Shown in pieces: positions 6,441-63,756 of a stretch of 64,000 bases of DNA. The first letter of the stretch is position 1, and each line of letters starts with the position of its first letter. Both the position numbers and the translations under genes were made by a program. A model generated the notes under the pieces. That model had not been told where the DNA came from and did no database searches. It was given only the letters and a program-made list of their open reading frames with translations. The stretch lies in assembly GCA_017621655.1 (NCBI GenBank), contig JAGASS010000029.1, positions 6,477 to 70,476 on the forward strand, written 5' to 3'. The DNA is from Clostridia bacterium (GTDB lineage: Bacteria > Bacillota > Clostridia > Oscillospirales > CAG-272).

Positions 6441-6573
6441 TTGTCGCACTCCTGTACGGCAGCTACCCTACGCCAGTAATGTTCTCATACTGTCTTATTG
6501 GAAACTACCTTGACGGGTCTTTTTTTATGTTCGTGATACGATTTTGCCAAAACCAATTGTGAATCGTTTTCGT

Positions 6574-6596
6574 GGGGGCGATGTCCTCGACACCCC
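6574..6596 (+). repeat. Hairpin module C (GGGGCG-AYGTCCTCGA-CRCCCC)
   Basis: Same loop CGTCCTCGAC as 62124..62146. Present in inverted form at 46888..46909 with a different but still complementary stem. Confidence 0.6.
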
Positions 6597-6606
6597 AACA
6601 CCCGAA

Positions 6607-6749
6607 CACCTCATCCGTCAAGTGCCCGAGATCCTTCGCTGCGCCGCCCGCGCTGTCATTCTTGAGGGAGCGAAGCGACCGAAGAATCCCGCGGGCGAGC
6701 TTGCTCGAGGATGACAACGGGCACTTGACACCTTCCCCTCAGGGGAAGG
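6607..6749 (-). repeat. Hairpin module D, long variant
   Basis: CACCTCATCCGTC + long stem GTCAAGTGCCCG...CGGGCACTTGAC + CCTTCCCCTCAGGGGAAGG. Same architecture as 47123..47166 and, in reverse, 63454..63500. Confidence 0.65.
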
Positions 6750-6802
6750 CGAGACGACGTTCCGATATTTCGTCACGTTTTCGTAGGACGGGGGTTTCCC
6801 CT

Positions 6803-6925
6803 CCCGCATAAAAACGATGTTCTTTTTTTACAACGGGTCGTCGAGGCGCCGACCCCTACCGAGAAGCGTCCAAAATTTGCGCGGTAGGGGCTGGCGCCCA
6901 CGACAGCCCGCATAAAAACGATGTT
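6803..6925 (+). repeat. 19-nt perfect direct repeat pair flanking two GC-rich hairpins
   Basis: CCCGCATAAAAACGATGTT occurs at 6803-6821 and 6907-6925. Between them lie GGGTCG...CGACCC and CCCCTACCG...CGGTAGGGG. Confidence 0.7.
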
Positions 6926-6951
6926 ACATGGGTTAGCCGAAAATCTTATAC

Positions 6952-6997
6952 AAGCAGAAAAGAGAGAACAAAACGGTTTGATCCGTATGTTCTCTCT
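6952..6997 (-). terminator. Intrinsic terminator of the P-type ATPase gene
   Basis: Minus strand AGAGAGAAC-loop-GTTCTCTCT followed by TTTCTGC. Confidence 0.7.
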
Positions 6998-7039
6998 TTT
7001 TTAGTTAATGATGCTTTTGCTGTCGCAAAAGCGGAGTTA

Positions 7040-10692: not shown

Positions 10693-10862
10693 TTTTATTT
10701 TCCTTTCGGTTTCATATAACTATTATATTACATTTTTTCCCAATTATCAATAGAAAAGAGATGATAGGGAAAATCTTTGCGCGATATAACTCTTGCGGTG
10801 CACACGGGGCGTTACAGCGGAAGGAGCAAGCCCCTCCCCTACCAACAAAGTTTAAGCATTTT

Positions 10863-11012
10863 CTTAAACCGAAAGGGAATTCCAAAGGGGAAAACGTGTG
10901 AAAATTTGCTATCGCAAATTTTCATCGGTTTGCCCCTTGGCGGTTTTCTTTGCGCAGGTTTGCGAAGCAAAACTGCTTGTTTCATTTGCACGGGCAAAGA
11001 AATGCGGAAAAT
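10863..11012 (+). repeat. Module A repeat, copy 1
   Basis: CTTAAACCGAAAGGG..CCAAAGGGGAAAACG..AAAATTTGC-TATC-GCAAATTTT..GGTTTGCCCCTTGG..GGTTTGCGAAGCAAAAC..GCAAAGAAATGCGG. Matches 46952..47094 and the reverse complement of 61886..62012. Confidence 0.8.
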
Positions 11013-11154
11013 TTCACATCATATTTTTCTCTGCGTAAAATAATTACTGTAAGGGCATCAATTTTTTCTTAGCGCGAATATTATTCCCACGCCTGCCGAA
11101 AAATAGTAATGAGCTCTTACGAAGAAGAACAAAAAAACCGAAAGGAAAAATATT

Positions 11155-11544
11155 ATGACGTGTAAACGCGGAGATATATTTTACGCCGACCTGAGTCCCG
11201 TCGTCGGCTCGGAGCAAGGAGGACTTCGTCCCGTTCTCATAATACAGAATGACGTCGGCAACAGGTACAGCCCGACAGTCATCGCCGCCGCGATAACCTC
11301 GCGCACGGGAAAAAACAAGCTTCCGACGCACATAGGCGTTGAGGCGATGATAAGCTCCGACACATCAAGCGGCGGACTTATGAAAAATTCCGTTATTCTG
11401 CTCGAGCAGGTGAGAACGCTTGACAAGACCCGACTTAAGGAAAAGATGGGTCATCTTGACGACAGCGTTATGAGACGCGTAAACGAAGCTATCGCCGTCA
11501 GCTTCGGGCTTGGCGGAAGCACACCGAATGAAATAATCGGTTGA
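11155..11544 (+). CDS. mazF: MazF/EndoA (NdoA)-type mRNA interferase toxin
   Basis: 129 aa. [30 protein letters not shown]...KLPTHIGV...[16 protein letters not shown] is closely similar to B. subtilis EndoA as I recall it. No antitoxin ORF lies upstream. Confidence 0.85.
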
Positions 11545-14334: not shown

Positions 14335-15741
14335 ATGAAAAAGCTTGTTTTACTTATTATTACTGCGTGCATGATCGTTACCTGCTTCGCCTGCGGTAAC
14401 AAAAAGAAAGACGATCTTCGAGTTAGGATACCCATTTATCCGGATCCGACGCCGTGGGCGAAGCTCCCCGAGTACAACTTCAAGGGCGCGGATTTCCGTA
14501 TCAGTAACAGGGAAGAATACGGCGGACTTGAGGTCGTCGTTGATGACGAGACCTCAGAGGATATCGTCGACGAGGCACTTTTGTTGAGAAATGCAAAGGT
14601 CGAAGACAGATACAACGTTGAGATCGTCCGTCAGGACAATTCTTCCGCTTCGCATATTAATACCGTCCTTTCCGACCTTGCCGCGAAAAAAGGCACGTTT
14701 GACCTTGCAATGACGAGCGCGGGTGAAAGCTCGCCTATTATCACAAGCGGCGCCGTTTACGACTGGGCAAAGCTTCCTTACACCCACCTTGACGAGTCTT
14801 TCTGGCTCGGCAAAATGAACGAGGCGTTCACCGTGCAGGGCGTTATCTATACCGCTGTTTCCAAGATGTGCATTTCTACTGTCGCCAAGACATCCGCCTT
14901 GGCGTATAACCGCACTCTCGGTGAGGCTTGGAAAGGAAAAAATTTCACGAAAGAGCTTATCGATACCGTTTGCGACGGCGACTGGACCTATGATGAGCTG
15001 ATGAGCATTATCAATAAGTACGGATCGCAGGATGACAGCTGCGCGTTCTATATGACCGCGGACGAATCTATTGATACCTGGCACGCCGTATGGGAGATCC
15101 CCTGCGTAGAGAACGACGCGGAAAAGGGTCTGACTGACGTTTATATGAATGAAAAGCTCCGTTCATTTACAAGCAGAATGCATACGATGTACTACGATAC
15201 CGACGGTATTCGCTACGGCACTAAGGAAGAAGCAATAGGCGCGTTTATGGACGATAAGGCGCTTTTCACGACGATCACTATGTCAGATGCCCTTGACGTT
15301 CTGCACGGAAAATCCGGCTACATGATCATTCCTCAGCCGAAATACGATGATAATCAGAAAGAATACAGATCTGCCATGTATGCCGACTACTCCGTAATGT
15401 CGGCACCCAATACAGCCGATCCCACTCTTGTTTCTCTAATCGTTGAAGCGCTCTCTGTGGCTTCCGAGATGCATAACTATCCGACATACAAGCACGACGC
15501 GCTGCAGGCGATGACAACGGCTGACGCTGAATCGACGTTCGACATCGTTCTTGAAAAAGCTTCATGGGATATCGCAACGCTTCTTTCTTCGGAGGTAAAT
15601 ATGATCGGGCTTGTTCGGAACGACGTTCTCGACAACCCCGGTAACAGCAAGCTTGAAGAGTCATATATTGATATGAAGGACACGATTGCGGACATCCTCG
15701 CGGAAGTAATGAGCGCCGTTGACGAAAAATCCGAAAGCTGA
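14335..15741 (+). CDS. SBP-like lipoprotein 1 (ABC-type solute-binding fold, putative glycan binding)
   Basis: 468 aa. Signal MKKLVLLIITACMIVTCFAC|G. DFRISNRE...VVDDETSEDIVDEALLLRNAKVEDRYNVEI is typical of a Clostridia lipoprotein SBP subfamily as I recall it. Paralogue of 16162..17604. Confidence 0.5.
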   Translation: MKKLVLLIITACMIVTCFACGNKKKDDLRVRIPIYPDPTPWAKLPEYNFKGADFRISNREEYGGLEVVVDDETSEDIVDEALLLRNAKVEDRYNVEIVRQDNSSASHINTVLSDLAAKKGTFDLAMTSAGESSPIITSGAVYDWAKLPYTHLDESFWLGKMNEAFTVQGVIYTAVSKMCISTVAKTSALAYNRTLGEAWKGKNFTKELIDTVCDGDWTYDELMSIINKYGSQDDSCAFYMTADESIDTWHAVWEIPCVENDAEKGLTDVYMNEKLRSFTSRMHTMYYDTDGIRYGTKEEAIGAFMDDKALFTTITMSDALDVLHGKSGYMIIPQPKYDDNQKEYRSAMYADYSVMSAPNTADPTLVSLIVEALSVASEMHNYPTYKHDALQAMTTADAESTFDIVLEKASWDIATLLSSEVNMIGLVRNDVLDNPGNSKLEESYIDMKDTIADILAEVMSAVDEKSES

Positions 15742-16161: not shown

Positions 16162-17604
16162 ATGAAGAAGTTTCTTTTGCTTCTCATCGCAGCTTGCATG
16201 CTGATCACATGCTTTGCTTGCGGAGGAAACGGATCGGGTGGCAACAATGACCCCATCAAGCGCCCCCCCGGCAAAAAGTGGGATGCGCTTCCCGAGTACG
16301 ACGGCGGCGGTACGGACTTCCGTATCAGTACCAGAGGACACTACGGTGCAATGGAGGTAGTCGTTGACGACGAGACCTCCGAAAACATCGTTGACCAGGC
16401 GCTCGTACTTAGAAACGCTAAGGTCGAAGACAGATACAGCGTTTTCATCGTACGTCAGGATAACGACGGCGCTCAGTATGCTCACCTCAACCAGGTTCTT
16501 ACCGACTGCACCATGCAGGCAGATAAGTTCGACCTCGCTATGACCTACGTCTACGAGAGTGCGCCCCTTATCACTAACGGATTCGTTCTTAACTGGAACA
16601 ATCTTAAGTACACTCACCTTGATGAGTCGCACTGGATCCAGGGCATGAACAGGAAGTTCTCTGTTCGTGACGCGATCTACACTGCTATCTCCAAGATGTG
16701 TATCTCTACTGTCGGTCAGACCGTTGCTATGTACTACAACCGTGACCTCGGCGACCAGTGGAAGGGCGAAGAGTTCTCTGATGATCTCATCGCAACCATT
16801 CTTGACGGCGGCTGGACTTACGATAAGCTTATGAGCATCGTAAACGAGTACAATTTCGACGACGCTACCGGTGACGGACGTACTGCAGACGACGGCTTCG
16901 GCTACTTTATGTCTTATGACTGGCATATCGATACCTGGCACGCTGCATGGCAGATCCCCATGATCGAGAACGATCCTAAGGAAGGTCTTAAGGACGTTTA
17001 CTGGAGCGAAAAGCTCACTACCTTCGTAGACAGAATGCACACCATGTACTACCAGACTCCCGGTATCTTCTACGGTACTCAGGGCGAAGCAAGAGCTGCA
17101 TTCTCTACCCGTAAGGCACTCTTCGTTGCTGATGACCTTAACGCTTCCATCAACTACTACAACAACTACGTAGAAGACAACTTCACTATCATTCCTCAGC
17201 CGAAGTTCGACGAGAACCAGGATAGATACTACTCCGCAATGTTTGATAACTACTCGGTAATGTCTATTCCGATCACCGCTCACGCTGACATCGTTTCTCT
17301 TCTCGTAGAAGCACTTTCCATCTCTTCCGAGATGCACGTATATCCTGCATACAAGCACGACGCACTTCAGGGTCAGGCAACTTCTGACGTTGACTCGATG
17401 TTCGACACCGTTCTCGAGAGCGTTTCTTGGGACATCGGAACTCTTCTTCACTCTAAGATTCCCTTCATGGACATGGTTCGTGTAGACGTCAGAACCAATC
17501 CTGACGGCACTCAGATCAAGAATTCCTACGACGCTATCAAGGATGACGTTCAGGAAGCTCTTGAAGAGATCATGACTGCGTTCGACGAATTCCAGGAGAA
17601 CTAA
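16162..17604 (+). CDS. SBP-like lipoprotein 2
   Basis: 480 aa. Signal MKKFLLLLIAACMLITCFAC|GG. Collinear with 14335..15741 (DFRISTR, VVDDETSENIVDQALVLRNAKVEDRY, ISKMCISTV, GGWTYDKLMSI). Confidence 0.5.
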   Translation: MKKFLLLLIAACMLITCFACGGNGSGGNNDPIKRPPGKKWDALPEYDGGGTDFRISTRGHYGAMEVVVDDETSENIVDQALVLRNAKVEDRYSVFIVRQDNDGAQYAHLNQVLTDCTMQADKFDLAMTYVYESAPLITNGFVLNWNNLKYTHLDESHWIQGMNRKFSVRDAIYTAISKMCISTVGQTVAMYYNRDLGDQWKGEEFSDDLIATILDGGWTYDKLMSIVNEYNFDDATGDGRTADDGFGYFMSYDWHIDTWHAAWQIPMIENDPKEGLKDVYWSEKLTTFVDRMHTMYYQTPGIFYGTQGEARAAFSTRKALFVADDLNASINYYNNYVEDNFTIIPQPKFDENQDRYYSAMFDNYSVMSIPITAHADIVSLLVEALSISSEMHVYPAYKHDALQGQATSDVDSMFDTVLESVSWDIGTLLHSKIPFMDMVRVDVRTNPDGTQIKNSYDAIKDDVQEALEEIMTAFDEFQEN

Positions 17605-17833: not shown

Positions 17834-19507
17834 ATGAAAAGATCGCTTTTGATCTTGCTTGCGTTGTGCACGCTATTTACTTTTACCGCATGCTCATCGA
17901 ACAGCTTCGACGAAACGCCGACTGTTAACGGTGACACGGACGATAAGCCAAGTGACGATTTTGAGTTCACGGCGCCGAACGATAATCCTAAAAGTGACGT
18001 TTCCGTCAGCGCGTGGACTGCACATTCCTATACGAAAATTGCGGCAAACGGTGCCGTTCCAAGCTCGCCCTCGACCTCGTATAAGGTCTATATGGCGAAG
18101 CGTGAAACGGAGGGCTGTCAGGTTGTTTTCCGACCTGAGACCGACTGTTCACTGACGCTTAAATGCATATATAAAGAGGAAAATTCCCTCGATTATAAGA
18201 CCTTTGTTTTCGATACCAATTACGAGATAAACGGCTCGCTTCTTCCCGATCCTGCAAAGCAGTATACAGAGGGAACGAGCTTCAGCTGTAAGGCAGGGAA
18301 CACTCTTCCTTTCCTTATCGAGTTTACCTCGGTAAGCGGTACGAAGGAGGGGCATTATCCTTACGTTTTCGAGCTTCGTGATAAGTCAGACAAGACGGTT
18401 GCTCAGTTCGTGATAATCGTAAGAGTCTGGGATATTACGCTTCCCGAGAAGCTTTCCTATCAAAGCTCTGTAACGGTATCGAAAAAGGATATTGCGAATT
18501 ACTTTTCGGTAAGCGAAGAAGAAATTACCGACGAGGTCTATCTTAACTACTATAACCTGCTTCTTGAACACAATCTGAGCGCAAGAGATCTTCCTTACGA
18601 TATTTTAGATCCGCGTGCCGACGAATATATGTCGGATCCTCGCGTGACGGCGTTCAGAGTACCGCACGACGTTTCCGACGAAACGCTTGAAGCATATTAC
18701 AAAAAGCTGAAAACGAATACAAAATGGCTCAAAAAGGCGTTCTTTATGCCGGCAGGCGAGCTTTCGACCAAAGAAGAGATCGACGAATTTTGCCTTGAGG
18801 CAATTCACCTGCAGAGCATTTGTAAATCAATAAAGATCACGTGTCCTATGGATAAGGACATTCAGATCGATCCTCGCGGATGGGACCAGGTAAACGCGAT
18901 GAAGGGCTACTGTACTCTTTGGTGTCCGAAGCTTTGCCTTTGGGACGACGAGATCTCGTACGGTAAGCACGATTACGAGCACAGCATGTCCTTTGAAGCG
19001 AGAATGAGAAAGATGATGAGCGAGGACTTCGGTGTTTGGACTTACCTTTCTTACACACCGGGCGAGCCGTACACCGCGCTCGTGGTCGATCACTCGGGAC
19101 TTAATCAGAGAGTCGTTTTCTGGCAGCAGTATATGAGAGGTATACACGGATTCGTATACTGGTCGTCGACTGCGTGGAGCGTCTTTAACAAGGTCGATCC
19201 GTGGCAGAGCGTTGATACCGGTCTATACGACGATAAGGGCAATCACGTTTACGGCGACGGAATCCTGTTTTATCCCGGTAAAAGCGTGACTGATGCTCCG
19301 ACGGTGTCCCTGCGTATGAAGATAATGCGCGACGGTATCGACGATATGGAGCTTCTTATGTACGCAGCCAAGACTCTTGGAAACAAATGGGTAAATGAGA
19401 AAGTAAACTCAATATCCTCGTCACTCACCTCGATAGAGGCAACTGACGACATTTTCGCGCAGATCAGAATCGAAATCGGAAGCGCACTCGAAAAAGCACT
19501 TCCGTAA
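17834..19507 (+). CDS. DUF4091/GH123-like protein P1, lipoprotein, divergent; Asp of the DE pair missing
   Basis: 557 aa. Signal ...LFTFTAC|SS. Shares WCPKLCLWDD, GDGILFYPG and MKIMRDGIDDMEL with P2-P8, but has MPAGEL where the others have [IL]DEP. Confidence 0.55.
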   Translation: MKRSLLILLALCTLFTFTACSSNSFDETPTVNGDTDDKPSDDFEFTAPNDNPKSDVSVSAWTAHSYTKIAANGAVPSSPSTSYKVYMAKRETEGCQVVFRPETDCSLTLKCIYKEENSLDYKTFVFDTNYEINGSLLPDPAKQYTEGTSFSCKAGNTLPFLIEFTSVSGTKEGHYPYVFELRDKSDKTVAQFVIIVRVWDITLPEKLSYQSSVTVSKKDIANYFSVSEEEITDEVYLNYYNLLLEHNLSARDLPYDILDPRADEYMSDPRVTAFRVPHDVSDETLEAYYKKLKTNTKWLKKAFFMPAGELSTKEEIDEFCLEAIHLQSICKSIKITCPMDKDIQIDPRGWDQVNAMKGYCTLWCPKLCLWDDEISYGKHDYEHSMSFEARMRKMMSEDFGVWTYLSYTPGEPYTALVVDHSGLNQRVVFWQQYMRGIHGFVYWSSTAWSVFNKVDPWQSVDTGLYDDKGNHVYGDGILFYPGKSVTDAPTVSLRMKIMRDGIDDMELLMYAAKTLGNKWVNEKVNSISSSLTSIEATDDIFAQIRIEIGSALEKALP

Positions 19508-19518
19508 GGAGAACTATT

Positions 19519-21159
19519 ATGAAAAAGATCGTATCCCTTCTTCTTATCGTCTGTACGCTTTTTTCGACAGTTGCGTGCGACGGTGAGAAACCCGAGAAAA
19601 AGCCGAGCGTATCGGCAAATATTACTGCCTATGCGACGCATACCTACAATAAGATAATTGCGAACATCAAGCCGAAGGGTAAACTGTCTACCGATTATAC
19701 CGTGTATATGACGAGAGGCGAGACCGAGGGCTGTCAGATCGTTATTTACAGTGATCAGGCGGCAAAAAAGGTTGAGCTTGTTACCGTTTCGGGCGAAAAC
19801 GAGAGCATTACGACCGAGTTTTTCTCGATGAACAATACTCATAAAATAAGCGGTAAGCAGTATACAGACTCTACCTTCCCATACGGAAAGAAGGATATTT
19901 CGCTTGAAAAGAACAAGTCACTTTCCTTCGTTATCGACTTCAAGACTACTGCAGACACACCTGCAGGCGAATATAAATACGTATTCGCTATAAACGACGC
20001 ATCGGGAAAGAAGAGCGTAACGCTTGCGACCTATAACGTGACGGTACATGTTTGGGATATAGTTCTTCCCGAAGAAAAGACCTTTGCGACCTCGGCAGGT
20101 ATCAATACCTACCATATAGGCCGTTTCTACGGCGGTTGCGGACCTGCTCTCTACAAGCAGTTCTACGATATGCTTCTTGAGCATAACGTATGTGCTCATT
20201 CGCTCCCGTACGATATTCTTGATCCTCGCGCAGACGACTATATGTCCGACCCGCGCGTAACGTCGTTTGTGGTCCCCTCTCATCCCGAGGAAAATACCGA
20301 AGAGGATATTATAGCTTACTACAACAAGCTTAAGGAAAACCCCGAATGGCTCAAAAAGGCGATCTTCTATCCTATTGACGAGCCGTCTACCGCAGAGGAT
20401 CTGGAAAAATATAGAGCGCACTGCGAGCGTCTGAAGCGCCTTGCGCCCGAAATTCCCGTAATTTCCCCTATCTATACGAATATTCAGATGGGAGAGGGCA
20501 AGGACCAGGTCGACTTCATGGACCCCACTACCGATCTTTGGTGTCCGAAGCTCTGTCTCTGGGACGACAGTCAGTCTTACGATCCCTTCCTCGATTACAA
20601 GCCGAGCAAGAGCTTTGCCGAGAGAATGGCGGAGATGCAGAGCGAGGGCGACAAAATGTGGTCGTACGTTTGTAACGATCCTATCGATCCTTACGCACAG
20701 CTCTTCATCAATACCGCAGGCGTTGAGCAACGCCTTATGATGTGGCAGCACTATCAGCGCAATATCGAGGGCTTCCTCTATTGGGGAACGACCTCTTGGG
20801 GCTATAGGCAGAAGGGTCAAGTGACTTATAATAACATCGACCCCTGGGAGACTGTTTTCAACGGTGTTCGTGACGGTAACGGCAGTCCCGTTTACGGAGA
20901 GGGCTTCCTATTCTATCCTGCAGGACTCGATATGAGAATGTTTGAGCCGGTATCCTCCATCCGTATGAAGATACTCCGTGACGGAATCGACGATATCGAA
21001 TTCTTCTACGTTGCAGAGAAAGCTCTCGGCAAGGAATGGGTAATGAACTACGTGGATCAGGCAACTCCGACTCTTACGAGCTACGTGACGAACGAGCAAT
21101 TTGCAAAGATCAGAATCGAAATGGGCAACGCAGTCGAAGCCGCCCTCAAGAATAAATAA
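19519..21159 (+). CDS. DUF4091/GH123-like glycoside hydrolase P2, lipoprotein
   Basis: 546 aa. Signal ...LFSTVAC|DG. Motifs YPIDEPS, WCPKLCLWDD, GEGFLFYPA and RMKILRDGIDDIEF. Confidence 0.6.
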   Translation: MKKIVSLLLIVCTLFSTVACDGEKPEKKPSVSANITAYATHTYNKIIANIKPKGKLSTDYTVYMTRGETEGCQIVIYSDQAAKKVELVTVSGENESITTEFFSMNNTHKISGKQYTDSTFPYGKKDISLEKNKSLSFVIDFKTTADTPAGEYKYVFAINDASGKKSVTLATYNVTVHVWDIVLPEEKTFATSAGINTYHIGRFYGGCGPALYKQFYDMLLEHNVCAHSLPYDILDPRADDYMSDPRVTSFVVPSHPEENTEEDIIAYYNKLKENPEWLKKAIFYPIDEPSTAEDLEKYRAHCERLKRLAPEIPVISPIYTNIQMGEGKDQVDFMDPTTDLWCPKLCLWDDSQSYDPFLDYKPSKSFAERMAEMQSEGDKMWSYVCNDPIDPYAQLFINTAGVEQRLMMWQHYQRNIEGFLYWGTTSWGYRQKGQVTYNNIDPWETVFNGVRDGNGSPVYGEGFLFYPAGLDMRMFEPVSSIRMKILRDGIDDIEFFYVAEKALGKEWVMNYVDQATPTLTSYVTNEQFAKIRIEMGNAVEAALKNK

Positions 21160-21244
21160 TCGTTTAACAAAAAGCCGAAATGTCTCCCCGAAGCACTAAA
21201 AACGGGTTTTCGGATTGGCTTGGATGGTATCATCGGAGGTTATT

Positions 21245-22870
21245 ATGAAAAAGTTATTATTACTGATCATCACGTTTTCCATGATCGTCTCGCTTTTTGC
21301 GTGTAACGAAAGCGAAAAAAAGGACGACGTCGGAAAAAACGAGGTCATCAACGTAAGCGCGTGGACGACGCATCTGACCGATAAGCAGATAGCGAACGTC
21401 AAGCCCAAGAATATAAGCATGAATACGGTCTACGACCTTTATATGATGAAGGGCGAGACTGAGGGCTGTCAGCTTATTATCTACAGTGATAAGGACATCA
21501 AAAAGGGTGTCATGGAATCGGAGCTTGATAAGTACGCAGACAAGAATCTGACCTCCGAGATATTCGTAATGAATAAAACTCATACCATAAAGGGAAAGAA
21601 ATGGACAGACTCCGCCATTCCTTATTACGGTACGAAGATCGCGTTTGATTCGAGACTTGTAACTCCGTTTATCGTTGAATTTACTACTACGAAGGATACT
21701 CCTGCAGGCGATTATACGTATAGCTACGAGTTCAAGAACGCAGCAAACAATGAGGTGCTTGCTTCCTTTACCGTAAACGTACACGTTTGGGACATAGTTC
21801 TTCCCGAGGATAAGACCTTTGCTACCTCTGCGGGAATCAACGGTATGCAGATCGCAAGATTCGACAGGGGCTCTGAGATGTATAAGAAGTACTACGATAT
21901 GCTTCTTGAGCATAACGTCTGCGGACACGTGCTTCCTTACGATATTCTCGATGAGAAGGCAGAAGCGTATATGTCCGACCCGCGCGTAACCTCTTTCGTT
22001 ATCGGCATCTGGGACGCAAAGCTCTGGGACGACGAAAAGCTCCTTCAGTATTATAACAGAGTAAAAGAAAACCCCGTATGGTTTGAAAAGGCGATGTTTT
22101 ACGTAATCGACGAGCCGACTACCGAGGAAGCACTGGCAAATTACAGAGAATACTGCGACCGTTTTGCAAAGCTCTGCCCCGGAATCGGAGTTATAGCGCC
22201 CTTCTATACGAACAATCAGACGGGCGTGGGTAAGGATCAGGTCGACGCAATGGCACCGAGCACTATTCTCTGGTGTCCTAAGCTCTGCCTTTGGGATGAT
22301 AGTCAGTCCTACGATCCTTTCCTCGATTACAAGCCCGAAAAGTCCTTCGCCGAGAGAATGAAGGAGTTTCAGGCAGAGGGCGATACCGTTTGGGCATACG
22401 TTTGTAACGCACCGACTTCGCCTTACGCACAGCTCTTTATAGATACCGACGGTATCGTTCAGCGTCTTATGATGTGGCAGCATTATCAGAGAGACATTGA
22501 GGGATTCCTTTATTGGGGAGTTTCAACTTGGGGATATAATGACAAGAACGTTGATCCATGGAAGAAGCCGTATACCGGTGTCGGTGACGGCAAGGGTAAC
22601 GACGTTTACGGAGAGGGCTTCCTCTTCTATCCCGGTACCCCCGTAGGTATTGCGGGTCCCGTTGCGACGAGCCGTCTTAAGATACTTCGTGACGGAATCG
22701 ACGACATCGAAATGTTCTACCTCGCAGAGAAGTACCTCGACAAGGAATGGCTCGATGCCAAGATAAACGAGGCAACCCCCACCCTTACCTCTTACACCTC
22801 CGAAGAAAACTTCTATAAGATCCGTAAGGAAATAGGCGACGCACTTGAGGCGGCGCTCAAAAATAAATAA
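21245..22870 (+). CDS. DUF4091/GH123-like glycoside hydrolase P3, lipoprotein
   Basis: ORF 21215..22870. Start is MKKLLLLIITFSMIVSLFAC|NE at 21245, after GGAGG. Motifs YVIDEPT, WCPKLCLWDD and GEGFLFYPG. Confidence 0.6.
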   Translation: MKKLLLLIITFSMIVSLFACNESEKKDDVGKNEVINVSAWTTHLTDKQIANVKPKNISMNTVYDLYMMKGETEGCQLIIYSDKDIKKGVMESELDKYADKNLTSEIFVMNKTHTIKGKKWTDSAIPYYGTKIAFDSRLVTPFIVEFTTTKDTPAGDYTYSYEFKNAANNEVLASFTVNVHVWDIVLPEDKTFATSAGINGMQIARFDRGSEMYKKYYDMLLEHNVCGHVLPYDILDEKAEAYMSDPRVTSFVIGIWDAKLWDDEKLLQYYNRVKENPVWFEKAMFYVIDEPTTEEALANYREYCDRFAKLCPGIGVIAPFYTNNQTGVGKDQVDAMAPSTILWCPKLCLWDDSQSYDPFLDYKPEKSFAERMKEFQAEGDTVWAYVCNAPTSPYAQLFIDTDGIVQRLMMWQHYQRDIEGFLYWGVSTWGYNDKNVDPWKKPYTGVGDGKGNDVYGEGFLFYPGTPVGIAGPVATSRLKILRDGIDDIEMFYLAEKYLDKEWLDAKINEATPTLTSYTSEENFYKIRKEIGDALEAALKNK

Positions 22871-22885
22871 TATAAGGTGCAAAAA

Positions 22886-24523: not shown

Positions 24524-24547
24524 TTTTTATTATCAAGGAGAATTATC

Positions 24548-26005: not shown

Positions 26006-26032
26006 CTAATCGACAATAAGAGGTGATATGCT

Positions 26033-27535: not shown

Positions 27536-27563
27536 TTAGTGCTTACATAAAGAGGTGATTACT

Positions 27564-29063: not shown

Positions 29064-29070
29064 ATATATT

Positions 29071-29104
29071 AAAACGGCAATTTCTTTGAAATTGCCGTTT
29101 TTTG
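29071..29104 (+). terminator. Intrinsic terminator after P7
   Basis: AACGGCAATTTC-loop-GAAATTGCCGTT followed by TTTTT. Confidence 0.8.
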
Positions 29105-41229: not shown

Positions 41230-41436
41230 AATAAGATGTATCTTTATATGGCTCCCTCCGGGAGGGAGCTGTCGAGCCGTAGGCGAGACTGAAGGAGCCA
41301 TCGGGCGAGAAATGCTCGATAATAGATGTTTATGGAACCGCCCTAATGAGACGGGCAATTCTCTATAATATCTTTCATCGCGGGCTCCCTTCGTCCGTGG
41401 CTCTGCCGCTTGCACCATCCCTCCCGGAGGGAGGCA
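41230..41436 (+). repeat. Module B structured repeat, copy 2 (most divergent, core only)
   Basis: ATGGCTCCCTCCGGGAGGGAGCTGTCGAGCCGTAGGCGAGACTGAAGGAGCCATCGGGCGAGAAATGCTCGAT...GCCCTAATGAGACGGGC...CCCTCCCGGAGGGAGG. Ends 9 nt before the rex RBS. Confidence 0.8.
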
Positions 41437-41459
41437 GATTCCCGAAAGGAGATATAAAA

Positions 41460-45133: not shown

Positions 45134-45354
45134 TAAATTTCCTGCTTAGTGCGTGATAGATCGGCTATTAAAACCTACAAGAGATAAATGGAGCTTTATC
45201 TTCGTTATCTGGGTATGCAGACCTCCCCGCCCGCCTGCTTATGTCACGCGGTCAACGGGATGCTGGGAGCACAAATGATGCGAGAGGGCACCAACCTGCA
45301 CAGGCGGGTTTCTCAATGGCTGTCTACACGGCTCGGCGGGGTACACAAAAAATT

Positions 45355-46840: not shown

Positions 46841-46887
46841 ACCCTCTCCGTCTGCTTCGCAGACACCTCTCCCGAAGGGCGAGGCAC

Positions 46888-46909
46888 GGACCGTCGAGGA
46901 CGCCGGTCC
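46888..46909 (-). repeat. Hairpin module C, inverted copy
   Basis: GGACCG-TCGAGGACG-CCGGTCC. The loop is the reverse complement of the CGTCCTCGA loop at 6574..6596 and 62124..62146. The stem differs but is still paired. Confidence 0.55.
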
Positions 46910-46951
46910 CTACAATGACGCGGGAGGAACGATGTGACGTGGCGAATTTCC

Positions 46952-47094
46952 CTTAAACCGAAAAGGGTTTCCAAAGGGGAAAACGTGAGCAGAATTTTGC
47001 GAAGGCAAAATTCAAACCCGTTGTCCCCTTGGCGTGGTTCTTTTGGTAGGTTTGCGAAGCAAAACTACTCTTTTCATTGCACGAGCAAGAAAAG
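46952..47094 (+). repeat. Module A repeat, copy 2
   Basis: Collinear with 10863..11012. The inner hairpin is GAATTTTGC-GAAG-GCAAAATTC instead of AAAATTTGC-TATC-GCAAATTTT. Confidence 0.8.
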
Positions 47095-47122
47095 TTAGTA
47101 AAAAGATACATAACTTATGTAA

Positions 47123-47166
47123 CACCTCATCCGAGGTTTACCTCTTACCTTCCCCCTGGGGGGAAG
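47123..47166 (-). repeat. Hairpin module D, short variant
   Basis: CACCTCATCCG...ACCTTCCCC-CTGG-GGGGAAGG. Confidence 0.6.
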
Positions 47167-47209
47167 GCAAGGTGGCGCTTAATATAATTCTAATAAACTC
47201 TAAATCACC

Positions 47210-49103: not shown

Positions 49104-49110
49104 TAGACAC

Positions 49111-49563
49111 CAAAACCACGCGATAGTCGCGTGGTTAAAAAAAGGTTAACCGATGAACAGAAATGATGTAAAGAAAAAATGTAGTTTAAGGGTAGTATGT
49201 GCCAATGGCTCCAACTCCGGAGTAGTTTGCTGCGCAACCTACGGGAGCTGTCAGCGTAGCTGACTGAAGGAGCCATCGGGCGAGAAACGCTCGATAAAAG
49301 ATATTTACGGAACCGCCCTAATGAAAAGGACAACGCTCTATAATCCCTTTCATCGCGTGCTCCTTCCGTCTTTTTGCTTCGCAAAAATCCACCTCCCTCC
49401 CGGAGGGAGGCAATGAAACGTCCCTGAACCCATTTATGGGTAGCAAGTATCCAATGCATGGCTGGCAGGCCAATTTAAGGCGCACTTGTGCGCAGCCAGT
49501 AGTATTAGGGCTACGCCCGAAAATGAAATACCCCCCGCTATGCGGGGGGATGTTTATTTTTTT
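49111..49563 (+). repeat. Module B structured repeat, copy 3 (long form ending in a terminator)
   Basis: Opening hairpin ACCACGCG-ATAGT-CGCGTGGT. The core has an expanded first hairpin and GTCAGC-GTA-GCTGAC. A 3' extension of about 130 nt ends in CCCCCCGCTATGCGGGGGG plus ATGTTTATTTTTTT. Confidence 0.85.
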
Positions 49564-49628
49564 GTTGATTTTTCGCGTACGATATGATAATATGAAGAAA
49601 AGATGTTTTCTTTCGGAGGATAACCATT

Positions 49629-51959
49629 ATGTATATCGGGAACTGCAAAAACGTAAAGTTTTCATACACGAAATTCGGCGGTAAGATCCCGCTTGAGCCG
49701 GAGATAACAGACGATGGCGCGATACTGTTCAAATGGCAGAGAATATGTAAAACTGGCTTTGAGATTCAGTTCGTGCTTGATAAAGAATATTACGTCGGAT
49801 CGGTGACGGTCCCGTTTCATGAGGACTCTAAGGTCTGCTCGGTCAAGCTGATATCGAAGGGAAAGACCGTCGGGGTGTTCAATGCCGGTAACGGAAATAT
49901 GAAGGGCGGCAGAATAACAGTAGACGCAGGCGTTTTCACCGATAAGCTGACCGTCAGGATCGAAAGCGGAATATATGACGTTTGGTTTAATAAGCCCGAG
50001 GTGTCGGTATTTGAAAACGACACGCCGATCCTTTGGCCTATCCCTAAAAAAGCAAGCTTTGAAGACGGAACGGTCAGAATTTCAAGCATATCGGGAGAGG
50101 GAAGCGATGCGCTTTTTGCGGCAGGTTTCCTTGATGAGCTTCTTAACGAGCGCTTCGGTGACGTAAAAAGCGAGGACGGGGTTCCCGTTACTGTAATAAG
50201 CGATGAAGATCATGACGGCGAAAGATATACGGTTTCGGTTAAGAAGAACGGCATTACTTTGAGAGCATCAAAGAGGATATCACTTCTTTATGCAGTTTAT
50301 GCGTTGATCTCTCTTGGAGAAAAAGGCGAATTCCGTATCGCTGAGATCGACAACTGCCCCTCGCTTGAATTCCGCGGCTTCCATATGGGACTTCCGAAGG
50401 TTTCAAATATAGGATTCACTAAGCGGCTTTTCCGTGATATGCTTCTGCCGCTTGGATATAATACTCTGTTCGTACAGATATTCGGCTCAATGGAATATGA
50501 GCGTCATCCCGAGATAACGGAGGCGTGGAGAAAACAGCTTCAGATCGACCCTAAATTCCCGCACCATGCGCTCGGATGCGAGGGCGAAACGATCTCTAAA
50601 AAAGAGGTTTCGGAGCTTATTGACTACATAAGAGAGCTTGGCTTTGAAATAATCCCCGAGGTTCAGTCGCTCGGTCACGTTCAGTGGTTGACGCTTCCGC
50701 ACCCCGAGATCGCCGAGGCGGTAAAGCATAACGTGACGGTTGAAGATACGCGTAACGAGGACCTCCGCCCGTCTGAGGAGTATTTCCATTGCTACTGTCC
50801 GTCAAACGAGGATAGCTACAAGCTGATCTTTGACGTAATGGACGAGATAATCGAGGTCACAAAGCCGCAAAGATTCGTTCATATCGGACACGACGAGGTC
50901 TATAATATAGGTCTTTGCGATAAATGCAAGAACACACCGCCGGATATACTCTTTGCAAGGGACGTTCAGCGTATATATGAGCACCTGAAGGAGCTTGGCT
51001 ACCGCACGATGATGTGGTCCGATATGCTTCAGCCGGGCACCGATTATCTCACGCCGCCCGCAAGAAAGCTTCTTCCGCGCGATATAATAATGCTTGATTT
51101 TATATGGTACTTCAATTTTGCCGAGGATATTGAGGATAATCTTTACGAAGAGGGCTACAAGGTAATGGCGGGTAACCTTTATTCGTCACATTATCCGCGT
51201 TACAATAAGCGTGCAAGAGCTGAGAATTTCATAGGCGGCGAGGTCTCGACTTGGTGCGCGGTAAACGAAGAAACTCTTGCTGTAAACGGTAAGCTTTGGG
51301 ATATTATGTATACCTCGGAAATGCTCTGGAATCCCGAAAATTACGATGATTCTCACCGCAAGGCGTTCAGCTATGTCATATCGAAATATATTCAGCCGAA
51401 AATGCGCGATCTGGTAAGAGACAAATTCTCTGCTCACGGATATTCCGAAACCCAATTTGAATTGCCGACGGGAAGCAATGAGGGAATATCGCACGAGCTT
51501 ATGAAAGCTTATCCGTACGCTGTGATTGCCGACGGCGTAACGGTAAACGTCGGCGGAAGCTTTGAAAGATTCAAAATTGAGCATACAGCGCTCGAAAAGG
51601 AAATGCGTATGCGACATGCCGATCTTGCCCTTTCGGGAGAATATACTGTAAGATATTCTGACGGAAGCGAGTGGAAGATAAAGGTAGAGTATGCAGGTAA
51701 CATTATGAAGTGCGACACCTGTTACGCCCGTCCTTTCCCCGAAGCTCTTTACAGACATATCGGCTATGTGGGAACGTGGTTAAGCGATCCCGCTTACGAG
51801 GGTAAGACGGAAAACGGAGATGATCTGCTTGTCATGAGCTGTATCGTAGAGAATCCTTATCCCGAGAAGACCGTTGAAAGCATCAGCTACAATGCCGCCA
51901 AAGATGACGTGACGAACGTTCTCCTTTGCGGAATAAAGGGAATGAATAAGATTAATTAA
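49629..51959 (+). CDS. GH20-like beta-N-acetylhexosaminidase family protein, cytoplasmic
   Basis: 776 aa, GGAGGA RBS, no signal peptide. FRGFHMGL, IPEVQSLGH and the HIGHDEV Asp-Glu pair resemble GH20 core motifs. Confidence 0.6.
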   Translation: MYIGNCKNVKFSYTKFGGKIPLEPEITDDGAILFKWQRICKTGFEIQFVLDKEYYVGSVTVPFHEDSKVCSVKLISKGKTVGVFNAGNGNMKGGRITVDAGVFTDKLTVRIESGIYDVWFNKPEVSVFENDTPILWPIPKKASFEDGTVRISSISGEGSDALFAAGFLDELLNERFGDVKSEDGVPVTVISDEDHDGERYTVSVKKNGITLRASKRISLLYAVYALISLGEKGEFRIAEIDNCPSLEFRGFHMGLPKVSNIGFTKRLFRDMLLPLGYNTLFVQIFGSMEYERHPEITEAWRKQLQIDPKFPHHALGCEGETISKKEVSELIDYIRELGFEIIPEVQSLGHVQWLTLPHPEIAEAVKHNVTVEDTRNEDLRPSEEYFHCYCPSNEDSYKLIFDVMDEIIEVTKPQRFVHIGHDEVYNIGLCDKCKNTPPDILFARDVQRIYEHLKELGYRTMMWSDMLQPGTDYLTPPARKLLPRDIIMLDFIWYFNFAEDIEDNLYEEGYKVMAGNLYSSHYPRYNKRARAENFIGGEVSTWCAVNEETLAVNGKLWDIMYTSEMLWNPENYDDSHRKAFSYVISKYIQPKMRDLVRDKFSAHGYSETQFELPTGSNEGISHELMKAYPYAVIADGVTVNVGGSFERFKIEHTALEKEMRMRHADLALSGEYTVRYSDGSEWKIKVEYAGNIMKCDTCYARPFPEALYRHIGYVGTWLSDPAYEGKTENGDDLLVMSCIVENPYPEKTVESISYNAAKDDVTNVLLCGIKGMNKIN

Positions 51960-51963
51960 CGTT

Positions 51964-51995
51964 AGATCGCTCTCCTTAGGGGGAGCGATCTTTAT
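51964..51995 (+). terminator. Hairpin terminator-like element after the GH20-like gene
   Basis: AGATCGCTCTCC-TTAG-GGGGAGCGATCT followed by a weak T tract (TTTATG). Confidence 0.5.
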
Positions 51996-52002
51996 GTAAA
52001 TG

Positions 52003-52450
52003 AAATCCCCGCCATAGTGGCGGGGTTCAATATAGGTTTACCGATGAACAGAAATGATGTAAAGAAAAAATGCAGTTTAAGGGCAGTTCACGCCAATGGC
52101 TCCAACTCCGGAGTAGTTTGCTGCGCAACCTACGGGAGCTGTCACCGAAGGTGACTGAAGGAGCCATCGGGCGAGAAACGTCCGATAGAAGATATTTACA
52201 GAACTGCCCTAATGAGAAGGGCAACGGTCTATAATTCCATTCATCGCGTGCTCCTTCCGTCTTTTTGCTTCGCAAAAATCCACCTCCCTCCCGGAGGGAG
52301 GCAATGAAACATCCCTGAACCCATTTATGGGTAGCAAGTATCCAATGCATGGCTGGCAGGCCAATCTAAAGCGCACTTGTGCGCAGCCAGTAGTATTAGG
52401 GCTACGCCCGAAAATGAAATATCCCCCCGCTATGCGGGGGGATGTTTATT
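52003..52450 (+). repeat. Module B structured repeat, copy 4 (long form)
   Basis: Opening hairpin CCCCGCC-ATAGT-GGCGGGG. Collinear with copy 3, with about 21 differences in the first 315 or so aligned nt by hand count. Ends in CCCCCCGCTATGCGGGGGG. Confidence 0.85.
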
Positions 52451-52510: not shown

Positions 52511-52539
52511 TTGACAGACGGGAAGAATAGTGGTATATT
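52511..52539 (+). promoter_or_regulatory. Sigma-A promoter of the hrcA-grpE-dnaK-dnaJ operon
   Basis: TTGACA (52511-52516), 17-nt spacer, TGgTATATT (-10 at 52534-52539). Confidence 0.8.
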
Positions 52540-52549: not shown

Positions 52550-52576
52550 TTAGCACTCGACCGCTTTGAGTGCTAA
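52550..52576 (+). promoter_or_regulatory. CIRCE operator (HrcA binding site)
   Basis: Perfect TTAGCACTC-N9-GAGTGCTAA. Confidence 0.95.
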
Positions 52577-61884: not shown

Positions 61885-61885
61885 G

Positions 61886-62012
61886 TTTTCCGCATTTCTT
61901 TGTTCGGACAAAGAAACGCTCGCAAAGAAAACCGCCAAGGGGCAAACCGATGAAAATTTGCTTTCGCAAATTTTCACACGTTTTCCCCTTTGGATACCCC
62001 TTTCGGTTTAGG
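61886..62012 (-). repeat. Module A repeat, copy 3 (inverted; starts 2 nt after the fumC stop)
   Basis: The reverse complement reads CCTAAACCGAAAGGGG..CCAAAGGGGAAAACGTGTGAAAATTTGC-GAAA-GCAAATTTTCATCGGTTTGCCCCTTGGCGG... It lacks the GGTTTGCGAAGCAAAAC sub-hairpin. Confidence 0.8.
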
Positions 62013-62046
62013 AAGCTTCGCCACGTTAATTGTAGGGACCGGCAAC

Positions 62047-62090
62047 CTCGGAACCCCCAAAACTCGCATTCGCTCGTTTCGGGGAACCCC
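62047..62090 (+). repeat. Module E 44-nt repeat, copy 1
   Basis: CTCGGAACCCCCAAAACTCGCATTCGCTCGTTTCGGGGAACCCC. One mismatch versus 63640..63683. Confidence 0.8.
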
Positions 62091-62123
62091 CGCCCGACGG
62101 TCCGTTGTCCCCACGATATTGTA

Positions 62124-62146
62124 GGGGGCGACGTCCTCGACGCCCC
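62124..62146 (+). repeat. Hairpin module C
   Basis: GGGGGCG-ACGTCCTCGA-CGCCCC. Confidence 0.6.
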
Positions 62147-62244: not shown

Positions 62245-63027
62245 ATGACATACAGTTATTATCCCGGCTGTACTCTTAAAACCAAAGCAAAGGAGCTTGA
62301 CAGAAGTGCGCGTCTGTGTGCTGAGGCACTTGGCGCGAACTTGCGCGAGCTTGATAATTGGCAGTGCTGCGGCGGCGCATATACCGCGTCGAGCGACGAA
62401 ATTGCAACCAAGCTTTCCTCCGTCCGCGCTCTTCTTGAAGCAGAGAGCAGAGAAGAGGACATAATCACTCTTTGCTCCGCTTGCCATAACGTGCTTAAAA
62501 GAGTAAGAAACGACCTAACAAACGACGCGAATTTTGCGTTCAAGGTCAATAATTACGTAAAGCCCGAAAAGCCGTTTGAGGGCAAAACGAAGGTTATACA
62601 TTTTCTTGAATTTCTCCGCGACGAGATTGGCTTTGACAACCTGCGCGAAAAGGTCGTAAATCCCTTTACTGGCAAGAAGATCGCGGCTTATTACGGTTGC
62701 TTGCTCCTCCGTCCTTCGGGCGTTATGGATATGGACGATCCCGAAAATCCGAAGATCCTTGAGGACTTCATACGCGCTATCGGCGGCGAGCCGGTAATGT
62801 ATCCGTACAGAAACGAATGCTGCGGCGGATACGTTGCCCTTGAAGATAAGTCGGCAACGGTAAAGAAGAGCGAAAAGATCGTCGCGTCGGCAGACGGCTT
62901 CGGCGCGGATATTATTATCACCGCGTGTCCGCTTTGCTTATATAACCTCGAAAGCGCAAAGGGAGAGAGCGAAGTAAAATACTTTACCGAGCTACTCGCT
63001 GTCGCTCTTGGCATCAAGGAGGCGTGA
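62245..63027 (+). CDS. hdrB: Heterodisulfide reductase subunit B-like protein (two CCG domains)
   Basis: 260 aa. YYPGCTL, NWQCCGG, NECCGGY and ITACPLC. Confidence 0.75.
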   Translation: MTYSYYPGCTLKTKAKELDRSARLCAEALGANLRELDNWQCCGGAYTASSDEIATKLSSVRALLEAESREEDIITLCSACHNVLKRVRNDLTNDANFAFKVNNYVKPEKPFEGKTKVIHFLEFLRDEIGFDNLREKVVNPFTGKKIAAYYGCLLLRPSGVMDMDDPENPKILEDFIRAIGGEPVMYPYRNECCGGYVALEDKSATVKKSEKIVASADGFGADIIITACPLCLYNLESAKGESEVKYFTELLAVALGIKEA

Positions 63028-63407
63028 ATATGGATCTCAAAGAACAAGTTCTTATAATGAGTGGCGTCGACGTCCGTAAGTGTATGGCTTGCGGAAAATG
63101 CTCGGGCGCGTGTCCGTCGTATAACGAGATGGATTATCATCCTCATCAGTTCGTCTCGATGGTCAAAAAGGGAAACATCGAGCCGCTTATGAAGTCGGAA
63201 TCGGTATATAAATGCCTGACCTGCTACGCGTGCATCGAAAGATGTCCTCGCGGCGTCGAGCCGGCAAAGCTTATCGAGGCAATTCGCCTTCTCGCGGTCC
63301 GTCCGCAGGGAAGTAATCACATCAAGGCAGACGATATTCCGTCGCTTCTTGATCCCGAGCTTCCCCAGCAGGCGATCGTAACGGCATTCCGTAAGTATAG
63401 TAAATAA
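63024..63407 (+). CDS. hdrC: Heterodisulfide reductase subunit C-like 4Fe-4S dicluster protein
   Basis: 127 aa. CMACGKCSGACP and CLTCYACIERCP. GTGA overlap (GTG start) with hdrB. Confidence 0.75.
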   Translation: MNMDLKEQVLIMSGVDVRKCMACGKCSGACPSYNEMDYHPHQFVSMVKKGNIEPLMKSESVYKCLTCYACIERCPRGVEPAKLIEAIRLLAVRPQGSNHIKADDIPSLLDPELPQQAIVTAFRKYSK

Positions 63408-63453
63408 TAAACTACTATCTTTTATCTACGAAGGTAGATTGGACGCAAATATG

Positions 63454-63500
63454 CCTTCTCCAGCGGGAGAAGGTGTCGGCGAAAGCCGACGGATGAGGTG
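63454..63500 (+). repeat. Hairpin module D, short variant
   Basis: CCTTCTCC-AGCG-GGAGAAGG-TGTC-GGC-GAAA-GCC-GAC-GGATGAGGTG. The following CCTCATCC pairs with GGATGAGG. Confidence 0.65.
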
Positions 63501-63569
63501 TCTATGTTGGGAATTTACTCCTCATCCACCGCTCAGTAGTTTTCGCTACGCGAAACCTACCGCGGTCCC

Positions 63570-63589
63570 CCTTCTCCCTCAGGAGAAGG
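63570..63589 (+). repeat. Hairpin module D, stem-loop only
   Basis: CCTTCTCC-CTCA-GGAGAAGG. Confidence 0.55.
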
Positions 63590-63639
63590 TACGACAGCGC
63601 CCCGATAATCAGGTGTGTTGTTGGTAGGGGAGGGGTTTG

Positions 63640-63683
63640 CTCGGAACCCCCAAAACTCGCGTTCGCTCGTTTCGGGGAACCCC
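63640..63683 (+). repeat. Module E 44-nt repeat, copy 2
   Basis: CTCGGAACCCCCAAAACTCGCGTTCGCTCGTTTCGGGGAACCCC. Confidence 0.8.
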
Positions 63684-63756
63684 ACGCGCTCCTCCCGCAA
63701 AAGCATTTGAAAATTAGCACTAACCCCATAACAATCAGTCCGAAAGGAATAAGAAA

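Follow-up and report, generated by a model that had tools for sequence, protein, structure and literature searches.

Repetitive extragenic palindromes (REPs) of the GTAG type are defined by stems of 5–13 bp, loops of 2–20 nucleotides (nt), and alternative complementary stem residues, with inverted dimers and clusters being frequent and a typical position just 3′ of open reading frames (ORFs) (PMC3733652; PMC8266576). In the REPIN-RAYT systems, or REPtrons, such hairpins accompany a single-copy HUH/Y1 REP-associated tyrosine transposase (RAYT) that is encoded among housekeeping genes (PMC2817692; PMC3116915; PMC5581495). A survey of REPs from 2013 covers Proteobacteria, Cyanobacteria, Chloroflexi, and the PVC group, with Firmicutes going unmentioned (PMC3733652), and Group 1 RAYTs have been noted in Clostridia, with abundant REPs tied only to Groups 2 and 3 (PMC5581495). 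Beyond a one-line remark by Bertels in 2017 (PMC5581495), the literature we searched held no description of REP, REPIN, or RAYT in Firmicutes or Clostridia. Here, we analyzed a 64,000-nt stretch of the uncultured Clostridia bacterium GCA_017621655.1 (contig JAGASS010000029.1; the whole stretch is called the window below), in which nine intergenic gaps are filled with hairpin-forming repeats. These gaps probably hold a mosaic of non-coding, hairpin-forming mobile repeats that resembles the bacterial interspersed mosaic elements (BIMEs), and belong to a GTAG REP/RAYT system in Clostridia that has recently expanded in this lineage.

The window (~48% GC) consists mostly of plus-strand housekeeping genes with Firmicutes-type ribosome-binding sites and terminators. 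Its nearest public relatives are uncultured Clostridia metagenome-assembled genomes (MAGs) from ruminant guts, namely the sister species RGIG4652 (L029; ~92% nucleotide identity), RGIG4142 (L021; ~86%), and GCA_052839345 (L152; ~84% over most of the region, up to 92%), followed by more distant MAGs (L025, L026, L027, L153, and L154; 75–84%). More remote protein homologues are labeled Ruminococcaceae, Oscillospiraceae, or Acutalibacteraceae. Genes were called with our own codon-usage model, trained on genes with Pfam support, which left 26 intergenic gaps of at least 40 bp. Gap sequence was counted as repeat DNA when it was found again in another part of the window or in relatives at non-syntenic loci.

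The original prediction, made from the sequence alone, held that nine of these gaps are assembled from a shared set of short hairpin modules. Self-BLASTN and BLASTN against related loci placed repeats in exactly these nine of the 26 gaps and in no others, with a coverage of 31–93% per gap. The repeat gaps have a GC content of 0.45–0.53 versus 0.24–0.44 in repeat-free gaps, and two of them fold far better than shuffled sequence (z-scores −6.1 and −7.2). As anticipated, the modules occur in both orientations across convergent, divergent, and co-directional gaps. The short-module picture itself had to be amended: repeats are present in all nine gaps, but four of them hold a long family instead, here called Fam1, and a further long family of 165 bp, Fam2, is common to three others. 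Besides these two families, the prediction had missed the nesting of a small unit (E) in REP loops and the empty sites in relatives described below. Every module recurs in related MAGs, so the modules are not confined to the window.

Module C, predicted as a conserved loop on several alternative stems, was found in the window with this loop and these stems. Read on the appropriate strand, it consists of the tag GTAG, a GGNNNG stem arm, the loop GCGTCCTCGA, and the arm CNNNCC. The REP units are 25–26 nt long, with a 6-bp stem and a loop of 9–10 nt; loop and tag are conserved, and the three middle stem pairs vary between copies and are always complementary. The GTAG tag was present in six of the seven copies retrieved with a loop-only search, and altogether the 64 kb contain nine tagged hairpins, all of them intergenic. 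Single module C copies lie at 46888–46913 (−; GTAGGGACCGGCGTCCTCGACGGTCC) and 62121–62146 (+; GTAGGGGGCGACGTCCTCGACGCCCC), and a doublet of REP and inverted REP (iREP) at 6835–6909 joins 6835–6859 (−) to 6884–6909 (+) across a 24-nt spacer. A GTAG REP of the GGGAGG stem type at 10817–10842 (−) is free of unit E; two others carry E in the loop, one with the stem GGACCG (62032–62103, +) and one with the stem GGGAGG (63624–63696, +). Variants are a GTAG-tagged hairpin at 6783–6807 (+; GTAGGACGGGGGTTTCCCCTCCCGC) and a module C copy at 6572–6596 (+) with the degenerate tag GTGG (GTGG-GGGCGA-TGTCCTCGA-CACCCC).

Counts of tagged versus control hairpins in the window alone were uninformative because chance 6-mers dominate them, and the question of the tag was settled by metagenome data. 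We scanned human gut and other metagenomes with a pattern that fixed the loop and the tag and left the three middle stem pairs free, and found REPs at a minimum of 120 loci. Among the matches listed, 122 of 136 copies had perfect stems (6/6) at the free positions, in more than 20 stem-pair combinations, and of 137 hairpins, 134 had CTAC after the stem, among them nearly all of the 14 whose loops had not been selected by the pattern. The doublet at 6835–6909 recurs as a unit in L024 (88% identity), L017, and L010, and inverted REP pairs are also present in L053, L059, and L086. Module C is thus a GTAG-type REP, and the hairpins that carry unit E are the same unit.

The likeness to BIMEs that the original prediction had proposed is therefore borne out by GTAG-type REP anatomy, REP/iREP doublets, and clustering with other motifs. 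With the GTAG REPs and BIMEs of Proteobacteria (REP y, z1, and z2 of E. coli), the module shares a 5′ GTAG directly before a short GC-rich palindrome, inverted doublets, motif clustering, a position 3′ of ORFs and within operons, and alternative complementary stem residues as well as G-T pairs. Its 6-bp stem and 10-nt loop fall inside the published ranges (PMC3733652; PMC8266576). Unlike in the Proteobacteria, the host belongs to a Clostridia lineage, and the motifs that accompany the REPs here are much larger and more structured than BIME linker motifs.

A search with the Rfam 15 covariance models returned no match for any module, either at the gathering threshold or at E ≤ 1, and elsewhere in the window detected only a T-box and a 6S RNA. 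The modules match no described repeat or non-coding RNA family, as the prediction had it, although the kind of element is already known. BOX of Streptococcus pneumoniae and the miniature inverted-repeat transposable elements (MITEs) bcr1, RUP, Correia/NEMIS, and ERIC are likewise modular, intergenic, hairpin-forming, co-transcribed, and variably combined, and some of them occur in Firmicutes. We saw no sequence relationship to any of these, and BOX has a fixed A-B-C order.

The prediction had also suggested looking for a RAYT or IS200-type transposase, and RAYT-like Y1 genes indeed proved to be physically linked to the REP hairpin in contigs of gut metagenomes. Among the loci listed, ORF clustering gave a Y1 transposase-like protein of 170–190 aa as the sole recurrent mobile-element candidate. 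Its ORFs adjoin or enclose the REP in L087 (two copies), L112, L122, and L131; L112 is organized as a REPtron, in which four GTAG REPs precede the gene and three follow it, the latter with outward-pointing tags; every REP of L112 carries the tag. The proteins carry an HUH motif (MPNHIHLL) and a tyrosine in QRSYYDHIIR. Their best NCBIfam match is NF047646, the REP-associated tyrosine transposase (E 4e-20 to 3e-12; 47–72 bits against a cut-off of 80), with IS200 matching much more weakly, and among solved structures, E. coli TnpAREP is the nearest by sequence (4ER8, E 7e-10; ISDra2 TnpA, 0.27). A profile search returned thousands of RAYT-like homologues, some of which are named ‘REP element-mobilizing transposase RayT’ by JGI; those that NCBI names are listed there as ‘hypothetical protein’ from Ruminococcaceae, Oscillospiraceae, or Clostridia MAGs.

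In these genes, the REP is part of the coding sequence. Considering the best 120 of the thousands of homologues (P0241–P0360), retrieved with a four-sequence profile, two members of which had internal REP motifs, 109 contain the REP twice within the transposase ORF, inverted and in frame, so that the arms translate to VGTGVLDCP and GQSRTPVPT. Among the loci, the REP lies inside the ORF in L087, L122, L131, L155, L156, and L157, and in the last three it forms perfect inverted 26-mers about 140 nt apart around the segment with the HUH motif (L155, 10124–10314; L156, 10115–10308; L157, 1547–1743). Four stem-encoded residues co-vary in these proteins (97 have T,C,Q,V, 6 have T,G,P,V, and 2 have D,V,T,S), exactly as would be expected if the two arms retained one and the same stem allele. 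In the T,G,P,V allele, the stem is GGACCG, and the window REP at 46888–46913 is identical in 26 of 26 positions to the REP inside the RAYT-like gene of L157, which has this allele.

This arrangement is like the known REPIN-RAYT systems in having a single-copy HUH/Y1 transposase among housekeeping genes and, in L112, REP clusters flanking the gene. It differs from REPtrons in that the REP/iREP pair is in frame within the ORF and not beside the gene, a feature for which we found no description in the literature searched. The IS200/IS605 family and its non-autonomous derivatives, the palindrome-associated transposable elements (PATEs), likewise rely on single-stranded DNA hairpins recognized by a Y1 HUH transposase and have no terminal inverted repeats. 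Unlike for IS200/IS605, no parent element bearing tnpA/tnpB was found, the RAYT model fits the proteins better than the IS200 model, and the units are 26 nt long rather than subterminal ends of a longer element.

To see how the gaps came to be filled, we compared them with those of five to seven relatives, in which gene order is kept and gap length is not. Between fumC (fumarase) and hdrB, the gap measures 360 bp in the window, 250 bp in L025, and 17–25 bp in L026, L027, and the sister species L029; in the window a Fam2 copy (61885–62026, −) begins directly after the fumC stop codon, and the gap of L025 also has a Fam2 copy in this position. For fer4 and hdrA, the window has 349 bp between the genes, L029 has 110 bp, and L025, L026, and L027 have 18–19 bp. 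The window and L021 both have 409 bp between icd and rex, where L152 has 182 bp with different hairpins and L153 and L154 have 30–33 bp, such that one site holds different modules in different lineages. Between tktC and hrcA, finally, the window has a 3.4-kb arrangement of Fam1, a GH20 gene, and Fam1, where L029 has about 105 bp and no GH20 gene. At all four compared sites, the extra DNA follows the stop codon of one gene and precedes the ribosome-binding site of the next. Overall, the syntenic DNA of relatives has far fewer modules, the more distant relatives having none or almost none, and tagged REP hairpins number 0–1 per 20 kb there. Because the same sites measure only 17–33 bp in relatives, including a sister species at ~92% identity, the mosaics are recent insertions.

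The same comparison speaks to a reading in which the gaps are native, non-mobile regulatory DNA (terminators, attenuators, and operators) that looks alike through shared function. The hairpins are very stable, and Fam1 composites start just past terminators and end in a terminator-like hairpin, as such a reading would have it. Yet the sites shrink to 17–33 bp in close relatives with identical gene order, and the operons therefore work without the elements; moreover, the modules occur in both orientations and in all classes of intergenic gaps, and most module hairpins have no T-run. We regard native regulatory DNA as a very improbable explanation.

Units E and D bear on a different kind of mobility, namely that the modules are classical MITEs, i.e., deletion derivatives of DDE-type insertion sequences moved in trans via terminal inverted repeats with target-site duplications. 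Unit E was predicted as a 44-nt unit and was recovered as such at 62047–62090 and 63640–63683, with one mismatch between the copies. All four copies known to us, two in the window and one each in L010 and L020, sit inside the loop of a GTAG REP. A loop sequence of 4–6 nt (CCTCG or similar) is duplicated on either side of E in three of these four, which would suit a MITE, and the orthologous hairpin of the sister species L029 is without E. Judged by its position in the loop in all copies, the flanking duplications, and the E-less ortholog, E behaves as a small insertion specific to REP loops.

Module D was predicted as a CCTTCYCC/GGRGAAGG hairpin followed by an inner hairpin of very different length in different copies, and both lengths are present: the window has one full and two half copies of it, one half with a short inner hairpin (47123–47169, −) and the other with one of ~110 nt (6607–6751, −). 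In the latter, read on the minus strand, the hairpin CCTTCCCC-TGAG-GGGAAGG at 6731–6749 is followed by the inner hairpin and then by GGATGAGGTG. The full element at 63453–63590 is a palindrome of ~140 nt that runs from hairpin 1 (hp1; CCTTCYCC-N4-GGRGAAGG) through hp2, which has a GNA or GNRA loop, to a central hairpin GGATGAGG...CCTCATCC and back through hp2′ and hp1′. D is common in unrelated gut metagenome contigs, where it sometimes adjoins module C. Its ends are inverted copies of GCCTTCCCC-N4-GGGGAAGG, again in keeping with a MITE. MITEs are, however, defined by terminal inverted repeats together with target duplications, both of which most modules here lack: at the filled and empty sites compared, D, Fam1, and Fam2 showed no clean target-site duplication, no parent insertion sequence or DDE transposase recurs beside any module in ~1.1 Mb of fetched loci, and module C is a tagged hairpin rather than an element with terminal inverted repeats. 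On balance, we give the MITE explanation little credence.

Fam2 is a structured, lineage-specific repeat of ~165 bp, with copies at 10855–11030 (+) and 46937–47105 (+) in addition to the one behind fumC; the first of these forms a long, imperfect hairpin (~165 bp) whose inner hairpin is variable. Fam1 is longer and composite, with a core of ~170–190 nt and optional 5′ (~130 nt) and 3′ (~150 nt) modules, so that copies extend over 170–450 bp. Full composites lie at 49107–49563 (+; 5′ module 49107–49242, core 49243–49412, 3′ module 49413–49558) and at 52003–52450 (+; 93% identical to the former). The copy at 34665–34985 (+; core 34778–34965) is a short composite that, compared with full copies, has internal deletions in the 5′ and 3′ modules, and a core alone is present at 41248–41436 (+), ending 24 nt before the ATG of a rex-like gene at 41460. 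The sub-hairpin TTTGCGAAGCAAA, predicted to be shared between two modules, is carried on the plus strand by two of the three copies of Fam2, and three of the four copies of Fam1 contain its reverse complement. Two smaller units accompany these families: a two-hairpin module at 46842–46886 (+), laid out as in the 3′ tail of the Fam1 core, and, at 41055–41190 (+), a D-like two-hairpin domain, a hairpin (41108–41148), and a hairpin module (41145–41190), the last of which is also found in unrelated gut metagenome contigs.

Across the window and the metagenome loci compared, Fam1, Fam2, and E occur only in the relatives of the window, and in loci fetched for Fam1 alone, Fam2, E, C, and D are present as well. 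A search for a 19-mer of the Fam1 core gave matches at 18 loci from five or six related Clostridia MAGs, often at contig ends, with at least 11 copies in RGIG4142. The same 19-mer had one match in an archaeal MAG, which we took as chance, and none in viral contigs; the Fam1 composite had no match in the plasmid collection.

Fam1 is the element for which an RNA function has to be weighed most seriously. In this alternative, the longer units, above all the ~190-nt Fam1 core, are a multi-copy structured RNA such as a small RNA, a riboswitch-like leader, or a ribozyme. A seven-helix model of the core pairs 91.7% of cells versus 38–52% in slid controls, two local hairpins show compensatory changes, and G-U pairs are valid on the plus strand only. 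The four copies in the window all point in the direction of their flanking genes, and the copy upstream of rex is 97–99% identical between the window and L021, where the flanking genes are about 86–97% identical. This identity could reflect constraint or recent exchange, which is why we keep an RNA function as a minority alternative. Against it, the compensation is restricted to local hairpins, where it is possible at the DNA level, and the proposed long-range helix shows no compensatory change. Over 23 copies, the orientation relative to neighbors is mixed, and the neighbors are unrelated housekeeping and sugar-utilization genes. Furthermore, L153 and L154 have nothing inserted at the icd-rex site and L152 has other hairpins there, copies within one genome are 80–98% alike, metagenome contigs break inside copies, the plus strand of the element has no promoter-like site, and Rfam gave no match even at E ≤ 1. 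A structured functional RNA thus appears unlikely to us, and the mobile-repeat reading remains the one we prefer.

Two specific variants of an RNA function were considered and set aside. A hammerhead-like reading of CTGATGAG/GAAAC in Fam1 has the wrong motif order and no Rfam match, and a riboswitch or regulon leader is at odds with the unrelated neighbor genes, the mixed orientation, and the empty sites. The composite at 52003–52450 is also not part of the hrcA leader because it lies upstream of the promoter: a strong promoter-like site at 52511–52539 and a perfect CIRCE operator at 52550–52576 (+; TTAGCACTC-N9-GAGTGCTAA) precede hrcA-grpE-dnaK-dnaJ.

The two full composites of the window stand in direct orientation on either side of the GH20 glycoside hydrolase gene (49629–51959), and neither the sister species L029 nor L152 has this 3.4-kb block (49107–52450). 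In public metagenomes, this GH20 gene was found only on contigs of 2.5–2.9 kb that end inside repeats. Two direct Fam1 copies likewise enclose a three-gene block in L019, and accessory genes may be recombined or inserted preferentially at Fam1 copies. We set aside an integron attC interpretation of the GH20 block, as the flanking genes are syntenic housekeeping genes. In L023 (a Eubacteriales MAG), a phage-type tyrosine integrase (436–1620) ends about 50 nt before a full Fam1 composite (1675–2100). It is the only recombinase found adjoining Fam1, and the proximity may be a coincidence.

We propose that a RAYT-type HUH/Y1 transposase, whose gene would lie at another place in the genome, would bind the GTAG hairpin on single-stranded DNA and would cut and rejoin it. 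This activity would spread single REPs and inverted doublets to tolerated sites, typically the spacers between a stop codon and the next ribosome-binding site, with copies persisting only where insertion is harmless. Other non-autonomous elements (D, Fam1, Fam2, and E) pile onto the same sites or nest within each other, E by entering REP loops. Repeats inserted inside operons would be co-transcribed and, as for REPs and BIMEs of E. coli, would probably act as stable RNA stem-loops that alter mRNA decay or read-through, either by protecting upstream mRNA or by attenuating read-through. The hairpin-recognition and RNA-effect steps of this model are drawn from work on E. coli TnpAREP and on REPINs (PMC8266576; PMC3116915; PMC5581495).

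Several observations weigh against this proposal. Our module counts cover the 64-kb window and the fetched loci rather than the whole genome, and loop and tag are partly selected in the metagenome set because the retrieval pattern fixed both. Unlike in classical REPs, the loop of module C is invariant and three stem pairs are free. The RAYT-like proteins score below the curated cut-off, which sets them apart from known REPIN-RAYT systems, and no enzyme could be linked to D, E, Fam1, or Fam2. The RAYT-like genes of L155, L156, and L157 sit among housekeeping genes (ftsH, smpB, and murC) with no other REP in stretches of 12–20 kb; carrying such a gene therefore does not imply REP spread, and the situation fits a domesticated, single-copy gene. 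RAYTs are usually single-copy. By tblastn, no RAYT-like gene was detected in the window or in the loci L006–L031 (~0.3 Mb of relatives), and for this reason we infer, rather than observe, that mobility in this genome is RAYT-driven. Even so, we consider the BIME-like mosaic of mobile repeats the probable explanation of the nine gaps.

A bolder version of this proposal is that a large clade of RAYT-like proteins in gut Clostridia keeps its own REP/iREP pair within the ORF, with the arms evolving in concert, that E is a parasite of a parasite, and that Fam1 is possibly a structured RNA. We advance it as a speculation that may well turn out wrong. If it were true, the recognition hairpins of the enzyme would be built into its own gene, and self-regulation would be possible; alternatively, the HUH-encoding segment between the arms would itself be a REPIN-like unit. 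Within the literature searched, the traits that appear to be new are the Clostridia host, the design of a fixed loop on a free stem, the REP pair in a transposase ORF, and the second tier of repeats, some nested and some structured and specific to the lineage.

Further features lie next to the repeats or elsewhere in the window. Positions 1–6400 form a low-GC island (40% versus about 49%) with genes for an Eco57I/MmeI-like type IIG restriction-modification enzyme (2300–5335, −) and an Eco57I-type methyltransferase (675–2303, −); it was probably acquired horizontally, and its edge coincides with the start of the first repeat-filled gap. A gene for a MazF/PemK-type toxin (11155–11544, +) lies directly downstream of the repeat-filled divergent gap 10693–11154. 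Eight paralogous genes of about 485–557 aa (59–70% nucleotide identity) form a tandem array at 17834–30710, with signal-peptide or lipobox-like N-termini in both members whose translations were read and a weak match to the GH123 catalytic domain in both members scanned (17834 and 24548); another two paralogous lipoprotein genes are located at 14335–15741 and 16162–17604. The T-box leader (32671–32902, +; 81 bits against an Rfam gathering score of 93, E 5e-16) is located upstream of a gene for a pyridoxal phosphate-dependent enzyme (33032–34249), and the probable 6S RNA gene at 45136–45346 (+; 40 bits, gathering score 46, E 1e-4) aligns over the whole length of the model. A 158-aa reverse-strand ORF (63502–63978, −) crosses the mosaic of D and REP.

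Work on REP/RAYT systems has dealt almost exclusively with Proteobacteria and a few further Gram-negative groups, and our analysis places such a system in uncultured gut Clostridia. Its combination of a fixed loop and a free stem provides a natural mutational map of what the transposase reads. The repeats also have practical consequences, as they break metagenome assemblies, with contigs ending within them, and mislead automatic annotation through mis-called gene starts, over-extended ORFs, and conserved ‘hypothetical’ peptides. Such spurious ORFs had been predicted, and the one at 41346–42038 is a case in point, as it reaches 114 nt beyond the likely start at 41460, into the upstream Fam1 repeat. 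Because the repeats differ between species at ~92% identity, they could serve as strain markers. For the organisms themselves, the repeats insert in housekeeping operons and may change the stability of their mRNAs.

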